Positions 214 to 26,066 are shown, numbered from the whole stretch's first letter. The stretch: DNA of 63,750 nt, filler included, from Licmophora abbreviata (GCA_900291995.1; 9 parts of 9 records of this genome joined end to end with filler, not necessarily neighbours in it); one strand, 5' to 3'. Notes: a model not told the origin generated them from the letters alone. A program made the numbers and translations.

Positions 214-2519
214 CTATTGCCAAGTCGAGCCAAGCCACCCCTCCCGCAAGAAATGATTTGGAATCTCTGTGTTGCTGCCGACGCGATAATTTCCCACGGT
301 ATACCCAGCAATCCACAGTCTGGCAGCTTCGTCTTTCAATTGCTCTGATGGAAACACAGTCGTGGGATAGATTTCGCATTCACTGACAACATAGCGCACG
401 GCAGCTTTGCGTTCCTCCAAGGACGCTCCGCCCCGAACCAGTGGCGATGCAGCGCTTATACCAACGAGAATATCGGTGCGGAACATGTCCTTGTTGGCTC
501 CAAGCGCTTCTGCAATTTCAACGACTCGATCCCAGTCGAGCCAATCAAAGGGTATTGCTTCGTAGTGACTCCCTTCGGCAAAGGTACCATTGCGGTACAA
601 AAACCCACCGCTTGCTCGATCGCTCTGGTTCTCACTCACATAATTCCACTTGGCCATCCACACACGACCAAAGATGGTGAAGACTCCAAGTTCGATAGGA
701 GGTCTGTCGAATTTTTCAATCTCGATGAATCGCTCTTCCACCACGATCCCGGGCTTGACGTTTTTCAATGCAAAGGACTCAAAATACTTAGGCTTCGCGT
801 GAATGTTCGTTGCCAAAGACTGGGCAATCACACGAGGATCGAGGTCGTTGTTGGTATCGAGCGTCAACAAACTTCCTGCAGAATTGTAGCTGGTAGTATT
901 GGTTTCGGGATCAAAGCCAACAAGCCAGACACCCGTGGTTTCGGAATGATGACTTGGCTTGGCGACAAAGTCCATGTCGCTTGGAAGGAGACGAAAGATC
1001 TGTTCCGTTTCTTCATCAGTTCGACCACTATCCCCTAATTCGTGCGCATATCGAAGCGACATCGGACGCGGCTGGTCGATTCCAACAGTCGACAGCCATC
1101 TCTTGCGTGCAACCTTGTCGACATAAAAGCTGAGACTTGTTCGCTCGAGAGTCTGGCGATAGGCAATGAGCTGTTCCCAACCTTCGTCGCCTCGGATAAG
1201 CTGACTGATGTCAAAGTCTTCAAAGAGCAAGAATGGCTTGGTGGTCATTGGTGAACCTTCCTTCGACTTTTCCAACTGGTATCGACCAAGGTTGACCCCG
1301 CCACTGGGAACTCGAGAATAGTAAACGGAGTAATTTTGCGATCGAGAGGCGTAATGCTAGCCAAGTCCATGCCATCAAACAAGGCCGCGAAGTAGGTTTG
1401 AATGACGTTTCGTTCCCTCACGGGGACGAGCTCAAGATACGTCGCATTGAGATCCAGTGATTCTGCGAGATGGTCCAACCGATTGAGCTCGATCTTCAAC
1501 AAGTCTATGATCTCACTCGACGGTGGATGACCATGTAGCCAGCGTACTTCTTCGGAGCTATTGGACAAGGATTTGTTGGATGCGTCGACAGTAAACTCCA
1601 GTGCCACCGTTTCTCCTTCGCCGCGCCATTGAAACGAGAAGTGCCTTGGTAACCGTTCGACGACTCCTTGGCTCCGCAACGCGTCGTCCATGCTCCTTGG
1701 TATACCAAATCCGTACGAAACATAAATCTCATCTCCTTCTTGAATATCTTTCGATGCAATAATCTCGACACTTTGATTATACTTTGGTCTCGTAACTTTG
1801 GTATTCTGCCATGCTCCGTTGCGGTTGTTGTACAGGCCGTAGAATGGCAGAATTGCGGTCTGGAAGTGCTCCGAGGGAGTCATAATGTTGGGAGACGGAT
1901 CTCCCACCGCCAGGAAGAGTGCTTCCAGTCCCAATAGATCGTGTTCGACGTCGCCCCCACACTCCTCCTTCCACCACTGCAGAGGTCGACGAACGTCGGA
2001 GGGAGGAATGTTCTTGCCCAGTATCGCCGCCATCAATTCTTGTCCCGCCCTACTCCATGCCATGAGAGGCTTTCTACCATACGTTCGGAGCACCCGTACA
2101 TAGGGGGCATAGTGAGCGCTTCCTGTCGACATGTCGTCGAGCCATCGCAACTCTTGCTTCAACAATTCGATCGTGAAACATGGACTCTCCTGCTTGTTGT
2201 GTGGATCAGTATCGTCGGGGGGTGGTAGCATGACCAGCTCCCAAGGGATGGACGTCAGGACCGTCCCAGCGTCAATGGGCGCAGTCGCGTAGATACCGAC
2301 TCCCTTGTCGACATCCTTAGGATCCACACGACGAATCTTCTGTCGCCCATCGAATCGGCCGCCGTGGGTGTGAATCCAGGAGATTAGATTCTCAAACAGC
2401 GCGTCGTCGTCGAGAGGCTGATCGTCGTCGTCTTTTGCGAATGTTCCCTCGGCTACAACACGCCACACCAGCAACACCCAAGAGATCCATAACACCGATA
2501 TATGCCTTGAGAATACCAT
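214..2519 (-). CDS. Secreted SET-domain methyltransferase / TupA-like ATP-grasp fusion, copy 1 (split by a 1-nt frameshift at ~1296-1299)
   Basis: ORF 1245..2519 has a signal peptide and SET motifs (GIYATAPIDAGTVL, YNNRNG, DIQEGDEIYVSYG). ORF 214..1275 has ATP-grasp motifs (YVDKVARK, FVAKPSH, GIVVEERF, MFRTD, SECEIYP). Adding one G to the GGGG run restores VAGVNLGRYQLEK, colinear with the intact paralog at 8059..10380. Confidence 0.8.
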
Positions 2520-3132: not shown

Positions 3133-4134
3133 ATGCGACGCATCCCTCCGTTTGCGGCCCTGCTTGTGGGCCTTTTGATCCTCGCTGTCCTCTTGCAGGT
3201 CTGGATCCACATTGCTCTGGTGCAAGAAGAGCAAACTATATCCATAGAAAATCCCGTTGGGATCAAGGAGGACAAACAGCGCAGGATTCCGAACGTGATT
3301 CTCGCCGGCCCGCCCAAGTCTGGATCGACTTCCCTGGCCTACTATCTCGTCAGGGAGGGCTATGCGTGTCTGTCGGACAAGTTTCCCGGCGAACCACACT
3401 GGTACGATAAGGAAGTGCACTACTTTGACGTCACTGCTCGATACGCAAAGGGTCTTGACTTTTATCGCAATCGATTTGTGCACTGTGGTGAACACCCCAT
3501 CATTATGGACGGCACGCCCACCTACATTATGGAGCCCGCGCGGATTCGGGAGACCTATGACCTGCAAGGAACTGCCGAGGATCTCAAGATACTATTCGTT
3601 TTGAGAGAACCCGTCAGTCGAGAATTATCGTGGTACAACAACATGGTCAGGGCCTTTCCATGCTTCTATTGCTCGGCAGTGCGCAGATGGTCTTGGTTCA
3701 ACGATCGTATTTCCTTTGGCGGTCTGATATCCTTTGACGAGTACGTGGAACGAGCCGTCCATCGCAAGGGCTTAAAGGGAACGTATGGCAAGGCCCTCGA
3801 AAAGTGGTTGCGTTTCTTTCGACGCGATCAAATACTGATACTCTCGTACGACGAGCTGCAGAACAGCGAAGTTGACTTTTTGACGCGGGTTCATGAATTT
3901 CTAGGAATTCCGATCAAGGCGGACATGGGACTCGATCACAATAATGCTGCAGGGAAGACAGCCACTCGATTGCCGTCTTGCTTCTCACAGGCTAAACTGG
4001 CTGAGATATTTGATCCTTCCAATGAACGATTGTTCGCATTGCTGGACGAACACCCCGGACCACCCATGGAGCAGCGCCCGTTTCCTAGATTTACGACCAT
4101 GAATTGCTCAACCGACAAACAGAGAATAAGGTAA
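3133..4134 (+). CDS. Type II membrane (Golgi-type) PAPS-dependent sulfotransferase, heparan-sulfate sulfotransferase-like
   Basis: N-terminal TM anchor, 5'-PSB loop GPPKSGSTSL, KEVHYFD, 3'-PB motif LREPVSRELSWYN, and FRRDQILILSYDEL. Intronless, 333 aa. Confidence 0.88.
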   Translation: MRRIPPFAALLVGLLILAVLLQVWIHIALVQEEQTISIENPVGIKEDKQRRIPNVILAGPPKSGSTSLAYYLVREGYACLSDKFPGEPHWYDKEVHYFDVTARYAKGLDFYRNRFVHCGEHPIIMDGTPTYIMEPARIRETYDLQGTAEDLKILFVLREPVSRELSWYNNMVRAFPCFYCSAVRRWSWFNDRISFGGLISFDEYVERAVHRKGLKGTYGKALEKWLRFFRRDQILILSYDELQNSEVDFLTRVHEFLGIPIKADMGLDHNNAAGKTATRLPSCFSQAKLAEIFDPSNERLFALLDEHPGPPMEQRPFPRFTTMNCSTDKQRIR

Positions 4135-4431: not shown

Positions 4432-5970
4432 CTAGTTGTTCATATGCAATATGGTCAGAACAAAGACAGTGAGGAAACCCATGAAAGCCTGAAAGTGCAT
4501 GAACAGAAAGAACATCTTTCCCGTTTTTAATGCGTAAATGATTGCAGCAAAAAAGTAGAGCGTCAACATCCCATCCACGATCGTCGACAGTTCCACTTTC
4601 GTGGCCAAGTACTTTCGCCCCGCAAACTTCTTCGCGGGATCCTTGATGTTGAACTTTGGCGTGCGTACAAAGGGTGAACGCTTGCCCATCCAGGCTTGTG
4701 TAACAGCAATCGAACAGTGCAGTGATATCCCGACGGAAAAGGTTTGGTACACCGGGTACATGGCACCATACGCGAGTAGTTTCTTCCAGTAGCCGCCCTC
4801 CCTTCGGGCGGGCGCAGCCACGTTGCCAAAGTAGTGGATCAGAAGAAAAAGCAGCGAGTTGACAAGCGGCAGACATCCCAAAAGCTCTCCGTCGATCCAG
4901 TCGCCGTCGTGTAGGAGCAGCACGGGTACGCTGAGTGTCAGCATCAGTAGCAAGGCGACGTAAGAAGAGCTTGCGAGAAGATGCAGCGATGCATGCACCT
5001 TTTGGCCCAGACTCAATTTCGATTTCCAGATTGTAGGCAAAAGCTTGCGAGCCACTTCGGCTTGTCCCTTTGTCCAGCGAAACTGCTGTGACTTGAGGCT
5101 GTTCATATCGGAGGGCATCTCGCCAGGTGTACCGATCTCGTTGAGGTACCTGATTTTCCAGCCCGCCATTTGAGCGCGAAAGCTGAGGTCGACGTCCTCC
5201 GTGATAGTATCAGCTTGCCATCCACCGGCGTCCAAGATGGCTTCCTTGCGCCAAATTCCGGCCGTACCGTTGAACTGACAAAGGTAGCCACCCTTGTAGC
5301 GACCCTCCTGCTCCACACGAAAGTGAGTGTTAATGGGAACGGTCTGCACGCGAGTAAGCAAGGAATAGTCTTCGTTGAGCGTTTCCCAGCGCGTCTGCAC
5401 GCAGCAGATTTCAGGATCCCTGAAGCAGAGCATGGTCCTGCGCAAGAAGTCTTCTCGGGGCAAGAAGTCTGCATCAAAGATGGCGATAAACTTGCCCTTG
5501 GCGAGGTGCATACAATCCTGTAGAGCTCCAGCTTTGAAACCTTGTCGGACTGGACGACGTATTTGCCTAATGTTGAATCCCTTGGCCGCATACTCTGAAA
5601 CCTTTCGTCGGACGATCTTAACAGTCTCATCAGTACTGTCGTCGAGCACCTGCACCTCGAACTTGCGCTTGGGCCAACGCTGCTTCACGATGTTGTCGAT
5701 AAGGTCCTCGACGACGTAAACTTCGTTGTAGATGGGCAACTGGATGGTGACGAAGGGGTATGCGGAGCTGTTCTTGCCAGGATTGTCGTCTTGTTTCGAT
5801 GGATCGCTCTTGGGGTCGGTACAGAAGTATAAATGCACTTGTACAAATCCGTAAACTGCCACAACGCCAATGGCAAACATGAAAACCCCAACAGATAGAT
5901 ATTTTAAGCACGTCGATAGAGCCCCCGTCAGGTCAGCCCCCAGCTGGAGGACAGAACCTTGGAATTCCAT
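4432..5970 (-). CDS. Processive GT2 beta-glycan synthase (CslA/CslC-like or bacterial cellulose-synthase-family-like), copy A
   Basis: QLPIYNE, DDSTD, FKAGAL, DADF, TED and QQFRW form the D,D,D,QxxRW signature, followed by C-terminal TM helices and RTPKF. First ATG at 5970. Intronless. Confidence 0.92.
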   Translation of the reverse strand: MEFQGSVLQLGADLTGALSTCLKYLSVGVFMFAIGVVAVYGFVQVHLYFCTDPKSDPSKQDDNPGKNSSAYPFVTIQLPIYNEVYVVEDLIDNIVKQRWPKRKFEVQVLDDSTDETVKIVRRKVSEYAAKGFNIRQIRRPVRQGFKAGALQDCMHLAKGKFIAIFDADFLPREDFLRRTMLCFRDPEICCVQTRWETLNEDYSLLTRVQTVPINTHFRVEQEGRYKGGYLCQFNGTAGIWRKEAILDAGGWQADTITEDVDLSFRAQMAGWKIRYLNEIGTPGEMPSDMNSLKSQQFRWTKGQAEVARKLLPTIWKSKLSLGQKVHASLHLLASSSYVALLLMLTLSVPVLLLHDGDWIDGELLGCLPLVNSLLFLLIHYFGNVAAPARREGGYWKKLLAYGAMYPVYQTFSVGISLHCSIAVTQAWMGKRSPFVRTPKFNIKDPAKKFAGRKYLATKVELSTIVDGMLTLYFFAAIIYALKTGKMFFLFMHFQAFMGFLTVFVLTILHMNN

Positions 5971-8058: not shown

Positions 8059-10380
8059 TCACTCTTCGGCAAAGTCGACTGACAAGAAGCCCTTCTCTTG
8101 AAATTCCCGAGGGACCTCTGTATTCTTGATCGAGCGAAAGTTGCCCACGCGGTAACCAGCTATCCACAACCGTGCTGCTTCGTCGGATATGCGATCATTG
8201 TCAAACACGGTCGTCGGGTACAACTCGCATTCCGAAACCACGTATTCAACCTCATTGATTCGATCCTCCATAGTTGCCCCCTCTCGCCACGACGGCGAGG
8301 CAGAATTCACCCCTACGAGCACATCCGTTCGAAACATATCCTTGTGGGCTCCCAGCCGCTCGGCAATACTCACGAGATGCGGCCAGTCCACCCAATCAAA
8401 CGGCATTTTGTCGTTCTCGCCACCCAGCGCAAAGGTTCCATTCCGATAGATCCAGCCACCACGACCCACGTGACGGTTCTTGACATACCTCATCTGCCCT
8501 GCGTAGACACGTCCCCATATAGTGAAGATATTAAACTCGATCGGCGGTCGGTCGAACCTATCAAGCTCCACATATCGCTCTTCCACGACTATCCCAGGTT
8601 TCACATTCTTTAGCGCCCAAGACTCATGCCTCTTCGCCTTTGCCTGGAGGTTATTGGCAAGCGCTTGTGCGACCTGGCGATTACTGAAAGAAGCTTGATT
8701 ATTAGCTTCTTTCAGCTGACGTGCGTCGGAGGTAAACATAGTCTTGTTTGATGTCTGGTTGTGGCTGATAAGCCACACGCCCGTCGTTTCGGAATGATGA
8801 CTCGGCTTGGCAACATAGTCCGCCACGTTTGGTAGCAAATCTAGAATGAGCTGCTCTTCATCGTTTAGTTCACCTCTGTCCGTGAGTTCGAACCCATACT
8901 GAAGAGCGTACAAGGGCGGCTGATCGATCCCGATAGTCGGCAGCCAGCGTTTGCGTGCAACCTTGTCCACATAGAAACTTAGTGAAGGTCTCTCTAAGAC
9001 ATTGCGATAGTCGAGAATGTCCTGCCATGCCTCGTTTCCATGAATCAAGTGAGACATATCGAAATCCTCGTACAGTAGGAACGGCGGTTCTGTGTGCCCC
9101 TCTTCTAGCTGTTGTGCATCTGTTGACAGCTTGAATTGAGCCAAATTGATGCCTGCCACCTCGTAGTCAAACAGAGTCCAGTTGTTTGTAGTCCACACCA
9201 GAGTCGCTCTTGTCGCAGCCAAGATGCCTTTGTATAGCGTAGATATATACTGCCATATCAATTCTTTTTCCTGAAAAGGCACACTGACTAGATAGGTGGC
9301 GTCGGGATCGATGACTTCCGCCAAATGTTCCAGACGCTCCCTTTCAAGTTGCAGCAGCTCCATCGCACGCGACGAAGGCGGATGGCCGTCAACCCACGCT
9401 ACTGTATTTGGACCACCACGGTGGCTACTATCGAAATCAAAGTCGACGGAATGAGTTGTATTGGTGGTGGCGTGATCGTTCATGCGAATCGAAAACCGTC
9501 TTGGATACTGTTCCAGGAATCCGAACGATCGAAAGAAAAGTGCTGTTCCGATAGGGTTGCCTAGGCCATAGGAGACATAAATTTCATCTCCAGCCTCCAG
9601 ATCTTCAGGAAACACCCCAATTTTGATGTCTTTCCCCACCTCCGACTCCATGATGCGAGTGTTGTATCGCACTCCGTCGCGGTGGTTGTATGCGGGATAC
9701 AAAGGAAGTAAACCGCTCTGATGCGTCGTTCCCGACGGCGTCAGAAACGCCGGCGATGGGTCCGTGACGGAGATCGTCAACGCTTCAAGCAAGATGGGAT
9801 CAGTCTTGTCATAGTCCCCGCAATGATTTGTCCACCATTCCAGTGGCCGTTGGAAGTCTTGCGGTGGTAAGTTTCCGCCCAGCACAGCCTTCAGCAAGTC
9901 TTGGCCCTCTTGCGACCACCCCAGCAGGGGCTTTCGGCCCAACCCTCGCAGCATACGGAGGTGCGGCGCGTATTTGGAGGAGCAAGTTTCATTCCAACAG
10001 TCCAGCTGCATCAGTTCTCGCTTGGCTGCTCGCACACTCTCGCACGGGTCGTCCTGTTCAGGATCGTCCGGGGAAAGCACGAGATCGTACGGAATGGAAG
10101 CCAGAATTGTGCCTTTTGGAATGTGCTCCGTCGCGAACATGCCGTAGTACTTGAAATAAGAATCGTACTGGATCTCCTGTCGCTTGTCGACTCTACCGCC
10201 ATTCTCTCGGATCCAGGTCATGACATCTCGAACGAGCTGAGGGTATCCATCATCCGTATCCAGCTCGTATCCTTTCTCCGAGTGGAACTCATCGTCCGAG
10301 ACCGTCAGCGCACTCGCTCCCGGAAGAGCGAGAGCTACAGTGAGACAGAGCAGCAGTATCTTGATACAAGCAGCGACCAT
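8059..10380 (-). CDS. Secreted SET-domain methyltransferase / TupA-like ATP-grasp fusion, copy 2 (intact)
   Basis: 773-aa single ORF. Signal peptide (…PGASA/L), SET motifs GMFATEHIPKG, YNHRDG and EAGDEIYVSYG, and a C-terminal ATP-grasp with YVDKVARK, YVAKPSH, GIVVEERY, EFNIFTIWG, MFRTD and SECELYP. Confidence 0.85.
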   Translation of the reverse strand: MVAACIKILLLCLTVALALPGASALTVSDDEFHSEKGYELDTDDGYPQLVRDVMTWIRENGGRVDKRQEIQYDSYFKYYGMFATEHIPKGTILASIPYDLVLSPDDPEQDDPCESVRAAKRELMQLDCWNETCSSKYAPHLRMLRGLGRKPLLGWSQEGQDLLKAVLGGNLPPQDFQRPLEWWTNHCGDYDKTDPILLEALTISVTDPSPAFLTPSGTTHQSGLLPLYPAYNHRDGVRYNTRIMESEVGKDIKIGVFPEDLEAGDEIYVSYGLGNPIGTALFFRSFGFLEQYPRRFSIRMNDHATTNTTHSVDFDFDSSHRGGPNTVAWVDGHPPSSRAMELLQLERERLEHLAEVIDPDATYLVSVPFQEKELIWQYISTLYKGILAATRATLVWTTNNWTLFDYEVAGINLAQFKLSTDAQQLEEGHTEPPFLLYEDFDMSHLIHGNEAWQDILDYRNVLERPSLSFYVDKVARKRWLPTIGIDQPPLYALQYGFELTDRGELNDEEQLILDLLPNVADYVAKPSHHSETTGVWLISHNQTSNKTMFTSDARQLKEANNQASFSNRQVAQALANNLQAKAKRHESWALKNVKPGIVVEERYVELDRFDRPPIEFNIFTIWGRVYAGQMRYVKNRHVGRGGWIYRNGTFALGGENDKMPFDWVDWPHLVSIAERLGAHKDMFRTDVLVGVNSASPSWREGATMEDRINEVEYVVSECELYPTTVFDNDRISDEAARLWIAGYRVGNFRSIKNTEVPREFQEKGFLSVDFAEE

Positions 10381-10857
10381 GACTTGCCTACGACCTACGA
10401 CAAGAGATCCAACAGAACAATCTTTGGGACGGTCGTCGGGTTCTCATCGTTGAGAACCGGGGATTTCAATTTGAAATTCGATATGTCGACTGATTCGTGA
10501 CTGGGAAACCCAAGTGAGATGCTCATGAGTCATACACGAATTGAACAATACACATGGTTCGTGACTTATGCTACCGCTACCCGCCGTTTGAGTCGAATCT
10601 AGGGCACGCAGGTTACGTAAAATCAATCACCTTTTTATGGTATTGATGATATTACACGAAGAATATGTACTGCGTGCACGGAAGACCCTAGTCAGTTTTC
10701 GTAACATCGATTGGGATGTCAAAAGTGTAAGGGAGCGTTATTATTACCGACTTCACTTCTTCTAACCATGCCGCTACAAGTTCATATAAAGTAGTATGGG
10801 TATTTTTATCTCTCACGCTATATACTTGCTGAACCCCGCAATCTTCCACTTACTACT

Positions 10858-13011: not shown

Positions 13012-15099
13012 ATGAGAAACGATTGGAGTGCCAGCCGTCTGAGCCTTGTCGCTCTCGTTGTCCTGCAAGTTGGCGTGGTGCGTTCGATTCGGGCATCTCG
13101 AATTGATTTCGATCGCGATACCAGCACCGTTTATCTAGCTTCCACGGCCGTTTTTTTAACCGAGATTCTCAAGTTAGCCATTAACCTTCTTCTTGAACGT
13201 CAACAACTGGCTCGAAAGAACCAGGAACGAACGTGGCCAAACAAGAGAGTCGATCTCTGTTCGGGCCTCTTGTCGAACGATGGACTCAAGCTCGCGATAG
13301 TACCCGCTCTATTCTACGTGGTCCAAAATACGTTCGAGTATATCGCCTTGACTCATTTGACAGTGCCACTGTATCAAATTACAAACCAGGGCAAGCTGCT
13401 AACGATGGTACTCTTCCGTCGGATCCTACCAAGACAACACCAGCTCCTCTCTCCCAACCAATATTTGGCCCTGTTCCTTTTGGCGCTGGGAGTCGCACTT
13501 CAGCTGTACTCCATGCTGGGGCGCGAACAGGTACCGCAACAGGACTATACGCAGAGTCGTGTGGTTGGATTTCTTGCCATGTGTGTGGCGTGCATCGCAT
13601 CAGGATTCGGCAGAGTGTACTTTGAAAGGCTCCTCGCGGAACCACTCGTCTCGGTGTATATCCGGAACAGCCAAGTAGCACTGTGGAGTATTCCATTCGC
13701 AATGATGGGCATATTGAGTGACCTTGACAAGATAAAGGATGTCGGACTTTTTCAGGGATACAGTAATGCCCTCGTCTGGACGGTGATTCTTTCTCAAGCC
13801 GTCTATGGACTCGTGGTATCACTTGCCACGAAGCACGCCGTTTCTGGTCTCCATGGCTTGGGAGTGTCTATATACATTGTGTTCGCTGCCATGTGCACGA
13901 CGGTCATCTGGGGTGTCTCCCACTGGAACGCTTGGTATGTGTGGGTCGGCGCAGTCCTTATCCTGTACTCGGTGCGACTCTTTTATAAACACCCGGCGGC
14001 AGCAGAACTGTCGGCAAACGAGGAGAAAGGGCATCCCTACCGGTCTACCGCAAAAGTCCCAGGAAAGAGGCACCGGCATGCTCTTCTACTCCTTGTATTC
14101 GCACTCCTATTCGTTCAATTGCTAATTCAGACGATGCGACTGAGTAAAGATACAGCCAGCGTCCGAGCGCGCATTGATCAGGAGAGAAGGAATCAGCGAT
14201 GGAGAGGCCGCGTACTGAAACATCCCTTCTGGGAACCGCCGACGCTTATGCTTGGCAATCGCACGCTTCAGAAGAGCCAAGGAATCCGTCCTGCGACTAC
14301 ATGCTCGTACAGATCTATTCCAGCTGACACCGAATGGAGCCACCCAGGTTACACTGGTTACTCGTCGTGCATGTGGTACCACTGTAGTAGAGATGTTGAA
14401 CAGTGCGACAATACGTTGTCTACTACCTTTGATGGTCCGGATCCGCCATGTTGTAGCCATCTCATGAGAGACATGGCCGCTGCCGTTGACGAAGTCATGT
14501 GTTCCTTAGGGCTGGTCTACATGGTGGAGTGGGGCTCGCTGTTGGGATTGGTCAGGTCGGATCGATTCATACCGTGGACCGGCGATCACGATATCACAAT
14601 GACGAGATCCACAATGGCAGCATTGTGGGCGCTGCGGAACGAAGGCACGCTTTCAAAGCATGGTCTTGCGATGGTTTCTGACTCTAACTTCCGATTCTGT
14701 ATCTCTCCGACGTTTGCAAAAGGGAAACTTCAGCGGTGGGAGATGAAGAGACCATGGTCGAGCTATGTAACGGAACCCGAGCAGTGGTGGTTAACAGAGA
14801 ACTTCTTGTACACGGACGTTGGTTGGACTGGTCTGACCGAAGATGATCTGTATTTCGGTCCGGGGGCGGTCCGTTTCTTGCCGGAAGATGTGTATCCTCT
14901 GGTACGGAGGCCTGTGTACAACGGCACGTTTTACGTCAACTTTCCGCACAATTCCGAAGCGATGTTGAGCATTGGCTATGGGCCAGACTGGGGTACGCCG
15001 GACGCGAGGCAAAAGAAGCATGGCGACCCCGCCTATTTGAAGCATGCGAATCGAAGCATGCTAGTCGATATTCAGCGAGGCGGTCAATTGCCATCTTGA
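13012..15099 (+). CDS. SLC35A-type nucleotide-sugar transporter fused to a LicD-family phosphotransferase
   Basis: N-terminal ~325 aa have STAVFLTEILKL, VPALFYVVQN, YQITNQGKLLT, SGFGRVYFE, IRNSQ and GLFQGY. An extra TM is followed by a Cys-rich lumenal region and the LicD motif WGSLLGLVRSDRFIPWTGDHD…YGPDWGTPD. One uninterrupted 695-aa ORF. Confidence 0.85.
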   Translation: MRNDWSASRLSLVALVVLQVGVVRSIRASRIDFDRDTSTVYLASTAVFLTEILKLAINLLLERQQLARKNQERTWPNKRVDLCSGLLSNDGLKLAIVPALFYVVQNTFEYIALTHLTVPLYQITNQGKLLTMVLFRRILPRQHQLLSPNQYLALFLLALGVALQLYSMLGREQVPQQDYTQSRVVGFLAMCVACIASGFGRVYFERLLAEPLVSVYIRNSQVALWSIPFAMMGILSDLDKIKDVGLFQGYSNALVWTVILSQAVYGLVVSLATKHAVSGLHGLGVSIYIVFAAMCTTVIWGVSHWNAWYVWVGAVLILYSVRLFYKHPAAAELSANEEKGHPYRSTAKVPGKRHRHALLLLVFALLFVQLLIQTMRLSKDTASVRARIDQERRNQRWRGRVLKHPFWEPPTLMLGNRTLQKSQGIRPATTCSYRSIPADTEWSHPGYTGYSSCMWYHCSRDVEQCDNTLSTTFDGPDPPCCSHLMRDMAAAVDEVMCSLGLVYMVEWGSLLGLVRSDRFIPWTGDHDITMTRSTMAALWALRNEGTLSKHGLAMVSDSNFRFCISPTFAKGKLQRWEMKRPWSSYVTEPEQWWLTENFLYTDVGWTGLTEDDLYFGPGAVRFLPEDVYPLVRRPVYNGTFYVNFPHNSEAMLSIGYGPDWGTPDARQKKHGDPAYLKHANRSMLVDIQRGGQLPS

Positions 15100-19891: not shown

Positions 19892-20459
19892 TCAGGAGGC
19901 AGAATCAAACGCTTGCTGCGTACAGAGACGGGTCGTTGCGGTTTTGTGACGCTAGTGCTCATTACTCCCTTCAGGTCATCTCCCAAAATTGAAAATGACC
20001 TCGAGGCGTCGCGCCAATCTCGAGGTCGCGAGTTCCGTATCGTGTGGTCGGAGTATACACACAATTTTTGTCGTCCACAGCAACTTCAAATGAAAAATGG
20101 TAATCATACTTGTATATAATTAATTTGCTGTTCAGATCTGTTAGTCATCATATAAACTATATCAGATCATAATACAATTACAGATGGAGTCTGCTGTCTA
20201 TTGGCATAAGTGTAATCTGATAAAAAGGAGTCCAATGCCATTAAAGATTGAACTTGGCTTACAGGACTCGCCAGCGCGCAAGTATCCAATATTTCATATT
20301 CGTAGACGAATGTAGTGAGCTGGCCCGCGTGTTGTTGTCGCCGTGTTTCGTCATTGAATTTGAGGTTTTTAGTTGGTGAACATGCAGCGAAACATCGACA
20401 GCACAGCACGTGCCCAACCCTCATACGGCCTCACTGATGAGAACAAAGACGCCTTGACT

Positions 20460-21995
20460 ATGGACTTTCAGCATGACGTCCTTGAAAGGGGCGTAGACTG
20501 GATGATGGGTCTGAAATCGGGGTTCGCTACTCTCTCTTCGGCTCTCTTCATCATTACTTTCTGCATCGTATTTACCTACGGCGTGGTGCAAGTTCAATTG
20601 TACCGATGCACCTCCGTCACGCCGTCTGACGAAAAGGAACCGGACCCCGTCAAGGGCAACGTTGGACACCCCTTCGTCACGATCCAGTTGCCCATCTACA
20701 ACGAAGTTTACGTCGTCGAGGACCTTATCGACAACATCATGAAGCTGCGTTGGCCCAAGCGCAAGTTCGAGGTGCAGGTGCTCGACGACAGTAACGACGA
20801 GACGGTCAAGATCGTGCGGCGCAAAGTTTCAGAATATGCGGCCAAGGGATTCAGTATTCGACAGATTCGTCGTCCCGTTCGCCACGGCTTCAAGGCTGGG
20901 GCGCTGCAGGATTGTATGGACCTTGCCAAGGGCAAGTTCATCGCCATCTTTGATGCAGACTTCTTGCCCCGAGAAGACTTCTTGCGCAGAACCATGCTCT
21001 GCTTCAAGGACCCCGAAGTCTGCTGCGTGCAGACGCGCTGGGAAACGCTCAACGAAGACTACTCCCTGCTCACTCGCTTGCAGAATGTCCCCCTGAACAC
21101 TCACTTTCGTGTGGAGCAGGAGGGTCGCTACCAGGGTGGCTACCTTTGCCAATTCAACGGTACGGCCGGTATTTGGCGCAAGGAAGCGATCGTGGACGCC
21201 GGTGGATGGCACTGCGATACAATCACTGAGGACGTGGACCTCAGCTTTCGCGCTCAAATGGCGGGCTGGAAAATCAGGTACCTCAACGAGGTTGGCACAC
21301 CTGGCGAGATGCCGGCCGACATGAACAGCCTCAAGTCGCAGCAGTTTCGATGGACAAAGGGACAAGCCGAAGTGGCTCGCAAGCTTTTGCCTACAATCTG
21401 GAGCTCTGATGAATTGGACTTTAGCCAAAAAGCGCACGCGTCGGTGCATCTGCTCGCAAGCTCGTCCTACCCGGCTCTGCTCGTGAATTTGGCTATCAGT
21501 GTGCCCGTGGTGTTCCTACAGGACGCCGATGCGTTCCTCCCACGTGTATTGGGAACTCTTCCCCTTGTTAACTCGGTGCTTTTTTTGCTTGTCCACTATT
21601 TTGGCAATGTAGACTTGCCAACTCGGATGGAGGGCGGGTACTGGAAGAAGTTGGTCAAGTACAGCTTCGTCTATCCGCTTTACCAGACCATTTGCGTCGG
21701 TATTTCGCTGCACTGCTCAATCGGTGTTTTACAAGCCTGGATGGGCAAGCGCTCGCCCTTTGTACGCACGCCAAAGTTCAACATCAAGGACCCTGTTGCT
21801 AAGTTCTCTGGTCGCAAGTACTTGGCCACTAGAATCGAAATGTCAACGATCCTGGATGGTGTACTGGCGCTCTACTTTACTATGGGAATGATGTTCGGGC
21901 TGTACACGGGAAAATATGCCTTCATTGCCCTACATGCCCAGGCAGCAGCTGGTTTCCTTAGCGTCTTTGTCCTTTCGGTGATGCATATGAAGTAA
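20460..21995 (+). CDS. Processive GT2 beta-glycan synthase, copy B
   Basis: Same D,D,D,QxxRW signature as copy A, with a nearly identical catalytic core. Start placed at MDFQ (20460) by alignment with MEFQ of copy A; an upstream in-frame ATG at 20382 is possible. Confidence 0.92.
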   Translation: MDFQHDVLERGVDWMMGLKSGFATLSSALFIITFCIVFTYGVVQVQLYRCTSVTPSDEKEPDPVKGNVGHPFVTIQLPIYNEVYVVEDLIDNIMKLRWPKRKFEVQVLDDSNDETVKIVRRKVSEYAAKGFSIRQIRRPVRHGFKAGALQDCMDLAKGKFIAIFDADFLPREDFLRRTMLCFKDPEVCCVQTRWETLNEDYSLLTRLQNVPLNTHFRVEQEGRYQGGYLCQFNGTAGIWRKEAIVDAGGWHCDTITEDVDLSFRAQMAGWKIRYLNEVGTPGEMPADMNSLKSQQFRWTKGQAEVARKLLPTIWSSDELDFSQKAHASVHLLASSSYPALLVNLAISVPVVFLQDADAFLPRVLGTLPLVNSVLFLLVHYFGNVDLPTRMEGGYWKKLVKYSFVYPLYQTICVGISLHCSIGVLQAWMGKRSPFVRTPKFNIKDPVAKFSGRKYLATRIEMSTILDGVLALYFTMGMMFGLYTGKYAFIALHAQAAAGFLSVFVLSVMHMK

Positions 21996-24171: not shown

Positions 24172-26066
24172 TCAGACGTCCCCGCGAAGCCGGCGGACGC
24201 AGTTCTCTTCCCGACTCACACGGCCAGATTCTCCTCCTTGTCCGTCGTCGCCACGGCCAGGTCCTCGGCACCGAAACCGGGTAGGTTGCTCTTCCTTTCT
24301 CTGCGCTACTGGTTGGACGGTAACTGTGTTACTCGGAGAAGTGCTGGGGAGTTGAGTCGGATAGACTGACGGCATTGCCGATGGAGTCGAAGAAGGAACG
24401 GCGGAAGGGGAGCTCGTGGGGCCACTTGTTGGGCCGAGAATCGCCATGCTCACACCCATGATACGGCCAAGGGATGGAACTCCTTCCTTGTCAACGACAT
24501 TGAGATGCCATAGACCTGGTAACATGATGGTTCGGCCGGGCGTATACACTTCAATTGTCGTAGGATCATAGACCCGAAAGTCTAGATTGAGCCAGCGAGC
24601 GTCGCTGTTCCGCGCATGAGTCATGGATCCGGTCTTGGTAGCTGTCACCTTTGCAATATCCGTGGGGACGGCGACTGTGATACGAAAGGCGCGGCCGGCA
24701 AGAAGGTTCTTAGGCCAAGACTCGATAGCAGGTCTTGACGCCGGCTCGCCAGTCTTGGGATCGAACAAGTAGCCGGGATAGTATATCTGCCCGTTGTGAT
24801 TCTTCAGTGGTCCTGGTGCTCCACCTCCAGCCGAGAACACTGAGCCGTCAGGCAGTACAAGACCGGACGAATGGTAGAGACGTGGGATACTCTGCTTTGG
24901 GCCACTATAGACCGTGTCATTGATAGGGTCCCAGATTTGAGCTTCGCGAACGGCGCAGTCGAGCTCGTTCCCCTCGCTGCTAGCATTCTCGGTACAGCCA
25001 CCATTGATAGCGACCCGTCCATCCGGCAGCACAGCCATTGCGGCATTCATACGATTCTCGCCGAGAGCTTGTTTCCTTGTAAATAGCGGATTCGCACTAT
25101 CCGAAATATCGACACTCCACAGATTGCCCGTGTCATCCAGCATAACGACTCGATCAATATCGTACATGATAGCCGCTCCGAGCTTGTCGGATCGGAAAGG
25201 TCGAGTTCCGACCTTAACGATGCTGCCATCTCCGTCAACACGAACATGGTAGACGTCGTAATTCTGCCAGTCCGAGATAATAATAAGAATATCACCCTTG
25301 GAGTTCACATGGACGTGAGGGTACCACCATGCTCTCTGGGACGACCTTCGTTCCCTCAGGGCAGGAACGTCCGCACCTGGGAGGGCGCGAAAACCAGAGA
25401 CGGGATCCCAAATTTCAGGAATTGAGCTGGATTCTTTCTTCACAGACCTTCCCCCCACGATAAAGATGCGCCCATCCGGTAAGTTAACGCTAGTTCCGTA
25501 CCACCGTGGATACCTCATGTCTCCCAGCGGGTGTTTCCGAATCTGGTGCGTTTCAATGTCGAACTCCAGAACATCATTGACACCATTGTTGTCGTCATCG
25601 TCACCGCCCATTATCAAGATATTTCCCGTGGATATATCCATCGACAGAGTTGAGCAAAAGATATTCACGTCCGTGTTGTGTCTCATTCGCACGTGATTCG
25701 CCGATAGATCATGCCTGCCCGAAGTTGTGTCCCAGATTTCGTAGTCGCCTCGTCCGCCCTGTCTGGCGCTCTTGTTGGCGCCATACGACAGGACCGTCCC
25801 GTCTGGCAAGAAAATCACGTGAATCGGTATCACCTCCATGTTGAATACGTCTCCCCATCGACCTAGAGAGTCATCTGCGTCAGGGTGACAGTAGAAGCGC
25901 CGCCGATGGAAGTTAGAAGGTGAGCAATCTAGCACTCAAATCACATAGCTAAGGGTCGGTTCGACCGGCAGAGGTCCTTCCATCACGAGGGAAATTGCTT
26001 ACCGCCCACAACAGTTCTGAAGAGAAAGGCCAGCCCCAAAAGGCAGACGTTTGACACTGAGAACAT
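24172..26066 (-). CDS. Secreted copper-radical oxidase (AA5, galactose/glyoxal oxidase-like; Kelch propeller + C-terminal Ig-like domain)
   Basis: Exon 1 (26003-26066) encodes the signal peptide MFSVSNVCLLGLAFLFRTVVG; intron 25875-26002. Motifs NIFCS, RWYGT, WWYPH, RLYHS and SMTHA, plus a Pro/Ser/Thr tail. Confidence 0.85.

Follow-up and report, generated by a model that had tools for sequence, protein, structure and literature searches.

The stretch of DNA analyzed here, referred to as the window, comprises 63,750 nucleotides of Licmophora abbreviata (GCA_900291995.1) and consists of contigs joined by N spacers; the assembly (G000) amounts to 29 Mb in 7734 contigs. Positions 8059 to 10380 carry a single, intron-free open reading frame (ORF) on the minus strand, and its 773-amino-acid (aa) product, P0001, begins with a predicted signal peptide, which is followed by a SET domain and then by a TupA-like ATP-grasp domain. 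This bears out the first claim of an earlier, sequence-only reading of this DNA, which had described one such ORF. The full-length AlphaFold model packs as one unit, with a predicted local distance difference test (pLDDT) score of 88.6 and a predicted template modeling (pTM) score of 0.82. The junction between the SET and ATP-grasp parts (positions 9085 to 9235) is matched by a 151-base record of public run X2 (record 9) with 0 differences, and this run may come from the source sample of the DNA. Public run X3, which we guess to be RNA, covers fragments of the locus only and has adapter-like loose ends. The coordinates of these and other features are collected in Table 1.

A second copy at positions 214 to 2519 had been read as one ORF as well. 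It proved instead to be two overlapping ORFs (P0002 and P0003), separated by a shift of one base at a run of four G's. Both frames align to P0001 in tblastn searches (39% and 53% identity), and an intron at the frameshift was ruled out: the alignment of the paralogs runs on unbroken to either side of it, with no space for one. The frameshift may be an assembly error or a recent inactivation; the paralog on contig C3413 also has a one-base shift, within a short A run. In the SET domain of P0002, the catalytic Tyr is kept and the His of the Asn-His pair is replaced by Asn. The focal gene lies on contig C5323 and the split paralog on C5321, with their adjacency resting on contig order. Upstream of the focal gene, a short element with raised contig depth and many loose ends in the public runs is probably a dispersed repeat.

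Table 1. Features of the SET–ATP-grasp gene, its split paralog, and neighbors in the window
Feature	Positions	Strand	Details
Focal gene P0001: predicted signal peptide, SET, TupA-like ATP-grasp	8059..10380	-	One ORF, 773 aa
Predicted signal peptide (residues 1-24), then acidic stretch	10309..10380	-	Hydropathy heuristic
LSMT/SETD3-class SET and post-SET helices (residues ~47-392)	9205..10242	-	Pfam, profile, Foldseek
Linker with family-conserved VAGxNL segment	9085..9204	-	No stop, no frame change
TupA-like ATP-grasp (residues ~433-766)	8083..9084	-	D472-K473, K525, E600, E615, R684, D686, E717, E719
Paralog 5′ half P0002: predicted signal peptide, SET	1245..2519	-	SET E 6e-7; 39% identity to P0001
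Paralog 3′ half P0003: ATP-grasp frame	214..1356	-	ATG at 1248; open to 1356; 53% identity
G run (4 G), paralog frame change by one base	1296..1299	-	tblastn/alignment
Short element, probably a dispersed repeat	10590..10793		Upstream of focal gene
Membrane-anchored sulfotransferase	3133..4134	+	Beside frameshifted copy
GT2 glycosyltransferase paralog	4432..5970	-	Between the two SET–ATP-grasp copies
Signal-peptide protein, ~430 aa	6575..7888	+	Directly downstream of GT2
Nucleotide-sugar transporter and LicD-family phosphotransferase	13012..15099	+	One ORF
GT2 glycosyltransferase paralog	20382..21995	+	
Signal-peptide protein, ~430 aa	22665..23939	+	Directly downstream of GT2
Galactose/glyoxal oxidase-like kelch protein	24172..25839	-	

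The SET domain was recognized by several methods, in agreement with the sequence-only reading. Pfam PF00856 matches residues 79 to 272 of P0001 at E 2e-4 with 22.1 bits, just below the cut-off of 22.4; profile matches are to SETD6, SETD3, and LSMT, and Foldseek places the model with SETD3 at E 4e-11. The SET fold with its LSMT-type insert is present, and no Rubis-subs-bind domain was found by Pfam in P0001. The domain keeps the motif-I Gly (G80), N232-H233, and the catalytic Tyr (Y271), and Pro stands at the position of the LSMT-type Arg (R222 position; residue 208) and at that of the Asp before the Asn-His pair (residue 229). Among 13 fused SET domains, the Tyr is retained in 3, the Asn in 3, the His in 9, the Asp in 10, the Arg in 9, and the motif-I Gly in 3 of 12; P0001 is the only one of the 13 that has the Gly, the Asn-His pair, and the Tyr together. 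PMC3105404 describes the Tyr as conserved in SET enzymes without exception and has the LSMT Arg, replaced by Asn in Smyd3, working through its main chain; loss of the Arg therefore need not kill SET activity. Judged by these motifs, the chance that the focal SET is still active as a methyltransferase is about even, and we regard the SET domains of most fused relatives as putative pseudo-enzymes. Identity to P0001 across nine fused proteins is 30 to 38% in the SET domain versus 40 to 59% in the ATP-grasp domain. The genome also encodes an abundant signal-peptide SET type of ~600 aa, presumably the BacSETs; with E values of ≥0.02 against the fused-SET profile, it appears not to be the type to which the fused SET belongs.

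The C-terminal half was modeled separately from an alignment of 51 sequences (pLDDT 93.5), and Foldseek returned 95 matches at E ≤ 0.001 for this model, all of them ATP-grasp among the matches listed (cyanophycin synthetase, ArgX, LysX, RimK, Ddl, and PPIP5K/Asp1). The model thus confirms an ATP-grasp fold, as the sequence-only reading had assigned. ArgX was the top solved structure in the VIA comparison (Z 13.3; root-mean-square deviation of 3.1 over 207 aligned residues), followed by DcsG, VanA, and Ddl. The Z values are nearly tied across ATP-grasp classes, and therefore the solved structures fix the fold, not the reaction. A viral structure library gave as its top match an entry called 'TupA-like ATPgrasp' (E 6e-10; TM-scores of 0.57/0.66); one more protein, under a different name, reaches a similar score, and the remaining ATP-grasp classes have a TMq of ≤0.42. 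A search with ESM features placed one unnamed eukaryote cluster first and PF14305 (TupA) clusters after it, with 28 of 30 matches belonging to PF14305. These modeled and learned comparisons support TupA-like as the nearest of the ATP-grasp classes. That part of the earlier assignment is not reflected in Pfam: no PF14305 match was found in P0001, P0003, or 51 aligned relatives, and the best relatives score 23.5, 22.5, 20.1, and 16.5 bits, all below the gathering score of 25 bits. Weak sub-threshold PF14305 matches occurred in 3 of 76 proteins scanned. A PF14305 family search of the assembly found none, NCBIfam had no match for the focal protein, and PDB sequence searches with P0001 and with a C-domain profile gave nothing useful. 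A compact, leaderless bridge protein (P0208), itself with a weak TupA match, aligns to the family with 99.7% probability; tblastn of P0208 against plasmids gave no match.

The residue set expected of an ATP-grasp enzyme (two lysines, a hinge Glu, a metal-binding D...E-x-(N/E), and an Arg) is present. All 51 alignment rows have D472, K473, K525, E600, E615, R684, and D686; E717 is found in 50 of 51, and E719 in 48 of 51. We take these predicted ATP, Mg, and substrate residues to match the ATP/Mg residues of D-Ala ligase (Ddl). A scan of GTDB genomes for close relatives gave two loci, and both were rejected. One (L023) was a spurious match to an integrase. The other (L022:1-420) is a short contig in a metagenome-assembled genome labeled 'Woeseiaceae' that encodes a peptide of the diatom family beside an HMG-box-like gene and is likely eukaryotic contamination.

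A hydropathy heuristic predicts that P0001 enters the secretory pathway (endoplasmic reticulum [ER]/Golgi lumen), as the sequence-only reading had proposed. Residues 8 to 17 have a mean hydropathy of 3.1, an ASA motif ends at residue 24, and the same heuristic found no other transmembrane-like segment in P0001. Residues 25 to 50 hold 8 D/E versus 1 K/R. A plastid destination, raised by the Leu at residue 25, was dropped because the stretch that follows is acidic, unlike a plastid transit peptide. The N terminus is hydrophobic in 94 of 112 full family members versus 109 of 2240 internal windows. N-glycosylation sequons number 6 in P0001 and 368 in the family, against 325 ± 16 in shuffled sequences; ER-retention DEL ends were found in 3 of the 112 members, and P0001 does not have one.

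To see how the fusion is distributed, relatives of the ATP-grasp domain were collected. Of the 72 relatives found by an initial search, 4 include the SET half, and a profile search gave 399 family representatives at E ≤ 0.001, the best 150 of which were listed. Most consist of a hydrophobic leader and the ATP-grasp domain only. Named homologues come from Epithemia, Pseudo-nitzschia, Seminavis, Amphora, and Odontella, mostly raphid pennates. The fusion recurs as a minority form, with six SET-fused genes in the assembly (C5321, C5323, C3411, C3413, C3414, and C4212) and 10 fused records outside it; a SET-profile search at longer protein lengths returned two proteins. On C1225 the assembly has an ATP-grasp gene that stands alone; C3412 holds an ORF with a leader, an ATP-grasp domain, and the start of a SET domain, which probably continues into C3411. 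In a FastTree phylogeny of 135 rows, from which a coverage filter left out the partial domains P0007, P0140, P0197, and that of C3413, one group of 13 rows, with a support of 98, takes in 10 of the 11 SET-fused domains. The same group holds two stand-alone proteins and the C3412 domain, and the C4212 copy lies outside it. Read from these sequences, the SET–ATP-grasp fusion is real, derived, and reversible. A partial relative of the ATP-grasp family (P0191; 28% identity over 235 columns) was observed in the EukProt data set of Paulinella micropora, a cercozoan that makes silica scales; it is a single case and may be contamination.

The closest relatives of the fused SET link it to polyamine enzymes. 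When the assembly was searched with the fused SET, the paralogs were followed by signal-peptide SET–spermidine-synthase genes on C4359, C4001, and C4364, the products of which also carry an S-adenosylmethionine decarboxylase (AdoMetDC) domain (significant in two, weak for C4001). Such SET–aminopropyltransferase–AdoMetDC proteins are proposed to synthesize and N-methylate long-chain polyamines (Michael 2011, via PMC3820600). A fused-SET profile, compared with the ORFs of the top 30 of 47 Pfam-SET matches and some further loci, scored the SET–aminopropyltransferase proteins at E 1e-49, two degenerate fragments at 4e-20 and 3e-12, and all other intact SETs at 2e-10 or worse. In an IQ-TREE phylogeny of 21 rows, the fused SETs form one group (94/89) that is sister to the aminopropyltransferase type, on a joint branch (99/98) that rests on only three outgroups; the two window copies branch first among the fused SETs with weak support. 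The aminopropyltransferase-type SETs have the Tyr, His, Asp, and Arg intact in 5 of 5 cases. Neither an aminopropyltransferase nor an AdoMetDC domain was found in P0001 by Pfam or NCBIfam.

A second link is a shared family of 2-oxoglutarate and Fe(II)-dependent (2OG-Fe(II)) dioxygenases, candidate lysyl or prolyl hydroxylases. P0006 and P0220 are triple fusions of leader–SET–ATP-grasp–2OG-Fe(II), with SET domains that lack the catalytic Tyr, and P0220 ends in DEL. The same 2OG family stands alone beside the C3414 SET–ATP-grasp gene and across C3414/C3415, with HxD...H...R intact, and in P0211 (E 7e-42) it forms the front part, with a SET domain and a spermidine synthase behind it. Signal-peptide copies of this family were noted at L066:5926-7134, at L066:7396-8109 with L067:2-670, and at L076:654-1301, one of which ends in DEL. 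The C4212 SET–ATP-grasp copy has an aminopropyltransferase gene 3.6 kb away, and a MATE gene lies between the two. The N-terminal part of this aminopropyltransferase (L068:1828-3165) looks AdoMetDC-like by eye, without the usual cleavage motif and without a Pfam match. The ties of the family to the polyamine system through the 2OG partner and neighboring genes are guilt by association. From the sister relation of the SET domains, the link to polyamine- or silaffin-type chemistry suggested earlier gained support.

Other genes in the window were noted as well. The two GT2 glycosyltransferase paralogs share 84% DNA identity over 1.2 kb. The two ~430-aa signal-peptide proteins are similar-looking and have no significant Pfam match, and each GT2 gene with the protein gene downstream of it looks like one copy of a duplicated gene pair. 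A protein combining LicD and a cytidylyltransferase adjoins the ATP-grasp homologue in locus L048.

We tentatively favor, at a little short of an even chance, the reading that P0001 is an amide ligase of the lumen that would use ATP to link a carboxylate, e.g., that of a uronic acid, with an amine, plausibly a polyamine or aminopropyl amine. That it is a secretory amide ligase of some kind, all such readings together, is quite probable. Cj1438C of C. jejuni, the one TupA-like enzyme with described biochemistry that we found, uses ATP to amidate the C6 carboxylate of glucuronic acid with ethanolamine-phosphate or serinol-phosphate (PMC11800379, PMC12409886). In diatom silaffins, which undergo modification in the ER and Golgi, glucuronic acid is present, and lysines occur in methylated, hydroxylated, aminopropylated, and phosphorylated form; in silaffin-2, glucuronic acid is abundant and lysines are polyamine modified (PMC4557024). 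It is because of this chemistry and these modifications that a lumenal amide ligase is favored. In the mechanism that we envisage, the product of the single ORF, with the domain order observed, would be imported into the secretory pathway, as predicted, and would act on a carboxylate of a secreted glycan or glycoprotein of the cell wall, for instance a uronic acid carboxylate. ATP would activate the carboxylate as an acyl-phosphate for attack by the amine, as suggested by the fold, the invariant residues, and the Cj1438 precedent. The phylogeny suggests that the SET domain was recruited from the signal-peptide SET–aminopropyltransferase–AdoMetDC lineage, and because of this origin it likely recognizes polyamine or aminopropyl-lysine amines. 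Judging from its motifs, the SET domain would be a dead binding or scaffold module in most relatives, and the focal copy may N-methylate using S-adenosylmethionine (SAM). The SET domain would thus be accessory to the ligase and may still methylate in the focal copy. A bifunctional ligase and methyltransferase, as first proposed, fits the focal copy but not the family at large: the Tyr is lost in 10 of 13 fused SETs and most members are SET-less, and methylation is therefore not a general partner reaction.

Several observations weigh against this reading. The closeness of fold extends to a kinase, since ATP-grasp kinase PPIP5K2 has a Z of 11.8, within 1.5 of the top amide ligase in the VIA comparison. 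The Arg and Asp replaced in the focal SET are present throughout the aminopropyltransferase-type (5 of 5) and outgroup (3 of 3) SETs. A SET domain occurs in only 10 of 222 family records, which include fragments and near-duplicates, in 6 of the 111 with a whole domain and N-terminal room, and in 0 of 40 metagenome loci, many of them on short contigs. The stand-alone proteins P0012 and P0013 nest among the fused forms, and the ligase therefore appears not to need the SET domain. Other partners, namely unrelated class-I methyltransferases (Seminavis P0087 and P0080 and, by motif and UniRef name, Odontella P0132), ShK domains, and tandem ATP-grasps, would fit general glycan or protein modification equally well. 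The substrates named for P0001 are putative, and the role of the polyamine fusions is itself a proposal. No paper on amide-linked polyamines in diatom walls was found, as judged by title.

In an alternative reading, the lumenal ligase would form amides on extracellular glycans (those of mucilage, adhesive, or an organic layer of the wall), with amino acids or small amines as the groups attached, the SET domain being a decaying passenger and no tie to polyamines or silica existing. The analogy to Cj1438 would then be direct, and the absence of SET from most members and its degeneration in most fusions are as expected. The sulfotransferase, GT2, and LicD genes of the window may point the same way, as may GH125, sulfotransferase, and GT1-like genes near C3413/C3414, GT92, LicD, and pectinacetylesterase genes beside metagenome homologues, and the prevalence of raphid pennates among the named homologues. 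Yet the SET belongs specifically to the polyamine-fusion clade, the 2OG partner is common to both, and the reading frame of the SET is preserved in no fewer than 13 divergent proteins, with 30 to 38% identity. We consider this alternative possible but somewhat unlikely. Quite unlikely is a RimK/ArgX-type ligase that adds amino acids to carboxyls of secreted proteins, accompanied by SET methylation and 2OG hydroxylation. The top solved structures (ArgX, LysX, and RimK) and the protein-modifying character of SET, 2OG-Fe(II), and ShK partners would agree with such an enzyme, and CfmP, a TupA-like Klebsiella protein, is tied to protein rather than polysaccharide modification (PMC12632600). Those top Z values are, however, tied among many ATP-grasp classes, and in the viral library the TupA-like, not the RimK-like, match is clearly best.

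Trimethyl-lysines of silaffin-1A are hydroxylated and phosphorylated (PMC4557024), which raises the option of the ATP-grasp domain acting as a kinase that phosphorylates a hydroxyl made by the 2OG enzyme (e.g., on delta-hydroxylysine), so that the SET, 2OG, and ATP-grasp activities together would yield phosphorylated trimethyl-hydroxylysine. Triple fusions of exactly these domains exist (P0006 and P0220), and PPIP5K/Asp1 kinases score close in fold searches. Because the nearest family is TupA, whose one described member that we found is an amidoligase, and the triple-fusion SETs lack the Tyr, we hold this very unlikely. A chance juxtaposition or mis-assembly of two genes is scarcely credible: fragmentation of the assembly (7734 contigs) and the one-base frameshifts of two paralogs would speak for it, but six fused loci in the genome and 10 fused records elsewhere, a junction unchanged in the public run, and a model that packs as one unit argue otherwise.

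Beyond the amide ligase reading for P0001, a wider proposal is that diatoms have undescribed lumenal TupA-like ligases that attach long-chain polyamines, or the amines of aminopropyl-lysine, covalently to acidic silica-matrix proteins or to glycans with uronic acids, using a SET from the polyamine machinery for amine recognition or methylation and the shared 2OG enzyme, as one modular biosilica line. As a whole, this proposal is unlikely to hold. For most silaffin and polyamine modifications of diatom walls, the enzymes responsible are so far no more than proposals, and an unannotated, strongly conserved ATP-grasp family, predicted to be secretory and invisible to Pfam, is now tied to the proposed polyamine machinery through its SET clade and 2OG partner. 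The family supplies concrete, soluble candidates for assay, among which P0001 is the best choice for assays of both activities, being the only one with the universal SET residues. Amide ligation of glycans with ATP in the lumen of a eukaryotic secretory pathway would be unusual chemistry. Were ordinary mucilage amidation to prove true, this would still be a new diatom enzyme family.

The sequence-only reading had called the architecture novel. Both domains are of known kinds; the combination, and a secretory diatom ATP-grasp family, were not found described in a literature search judged mainly by titles and abstract openings. The gene lists and supplements of Michael 2011, Nemoto 2020, Iyer 2009, Riegert 2022, and the Seminavis paper may already contain the architecture. 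Compared with the TupA-like family (PF14305/Cj1438), the diatom proteins share the ATP-grasp fold, the conserved DK, KP, EE, RxD, and ExE residues, and the frequent fusion to an envelope-modifying enzyme, which in Cj1438 itself is a GT2. They differ in that they are eukaryotic, fall below the Pfam cut-off, carry a predicted signal peptide or anchor and diatom-specific insertions, and are fused to SET, class-I methyltransferase, 2OG, or ShK domains. The Rubisco LSMT/SETD3/SETD6 class gives the best profile and structure matches to the focal SET, with the Asn-His and Tyr positions aligned, whereas the focal SET is predicted to be secretory, has Pro in place of the Arg and Asp, and is fused to a ligase. 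The BacSETs (Nemoto et al. 2020) are likewise diatom SET proteins tied to cell-wall formation; if the ~600-aa family is presumed to be theirs, they have only remote similarity to the focal SET. The diatom SET–aminopropyltransferase–AdoMetDC fusions, as far as their description goes, share with the focal family a sister SET clade, a predicted signal peptide, a 2OG partner, and the same genome, and they differ in their intact SET motifs, the focal family having an ATP-grasp domain instead and motifs that are mostly eroded.

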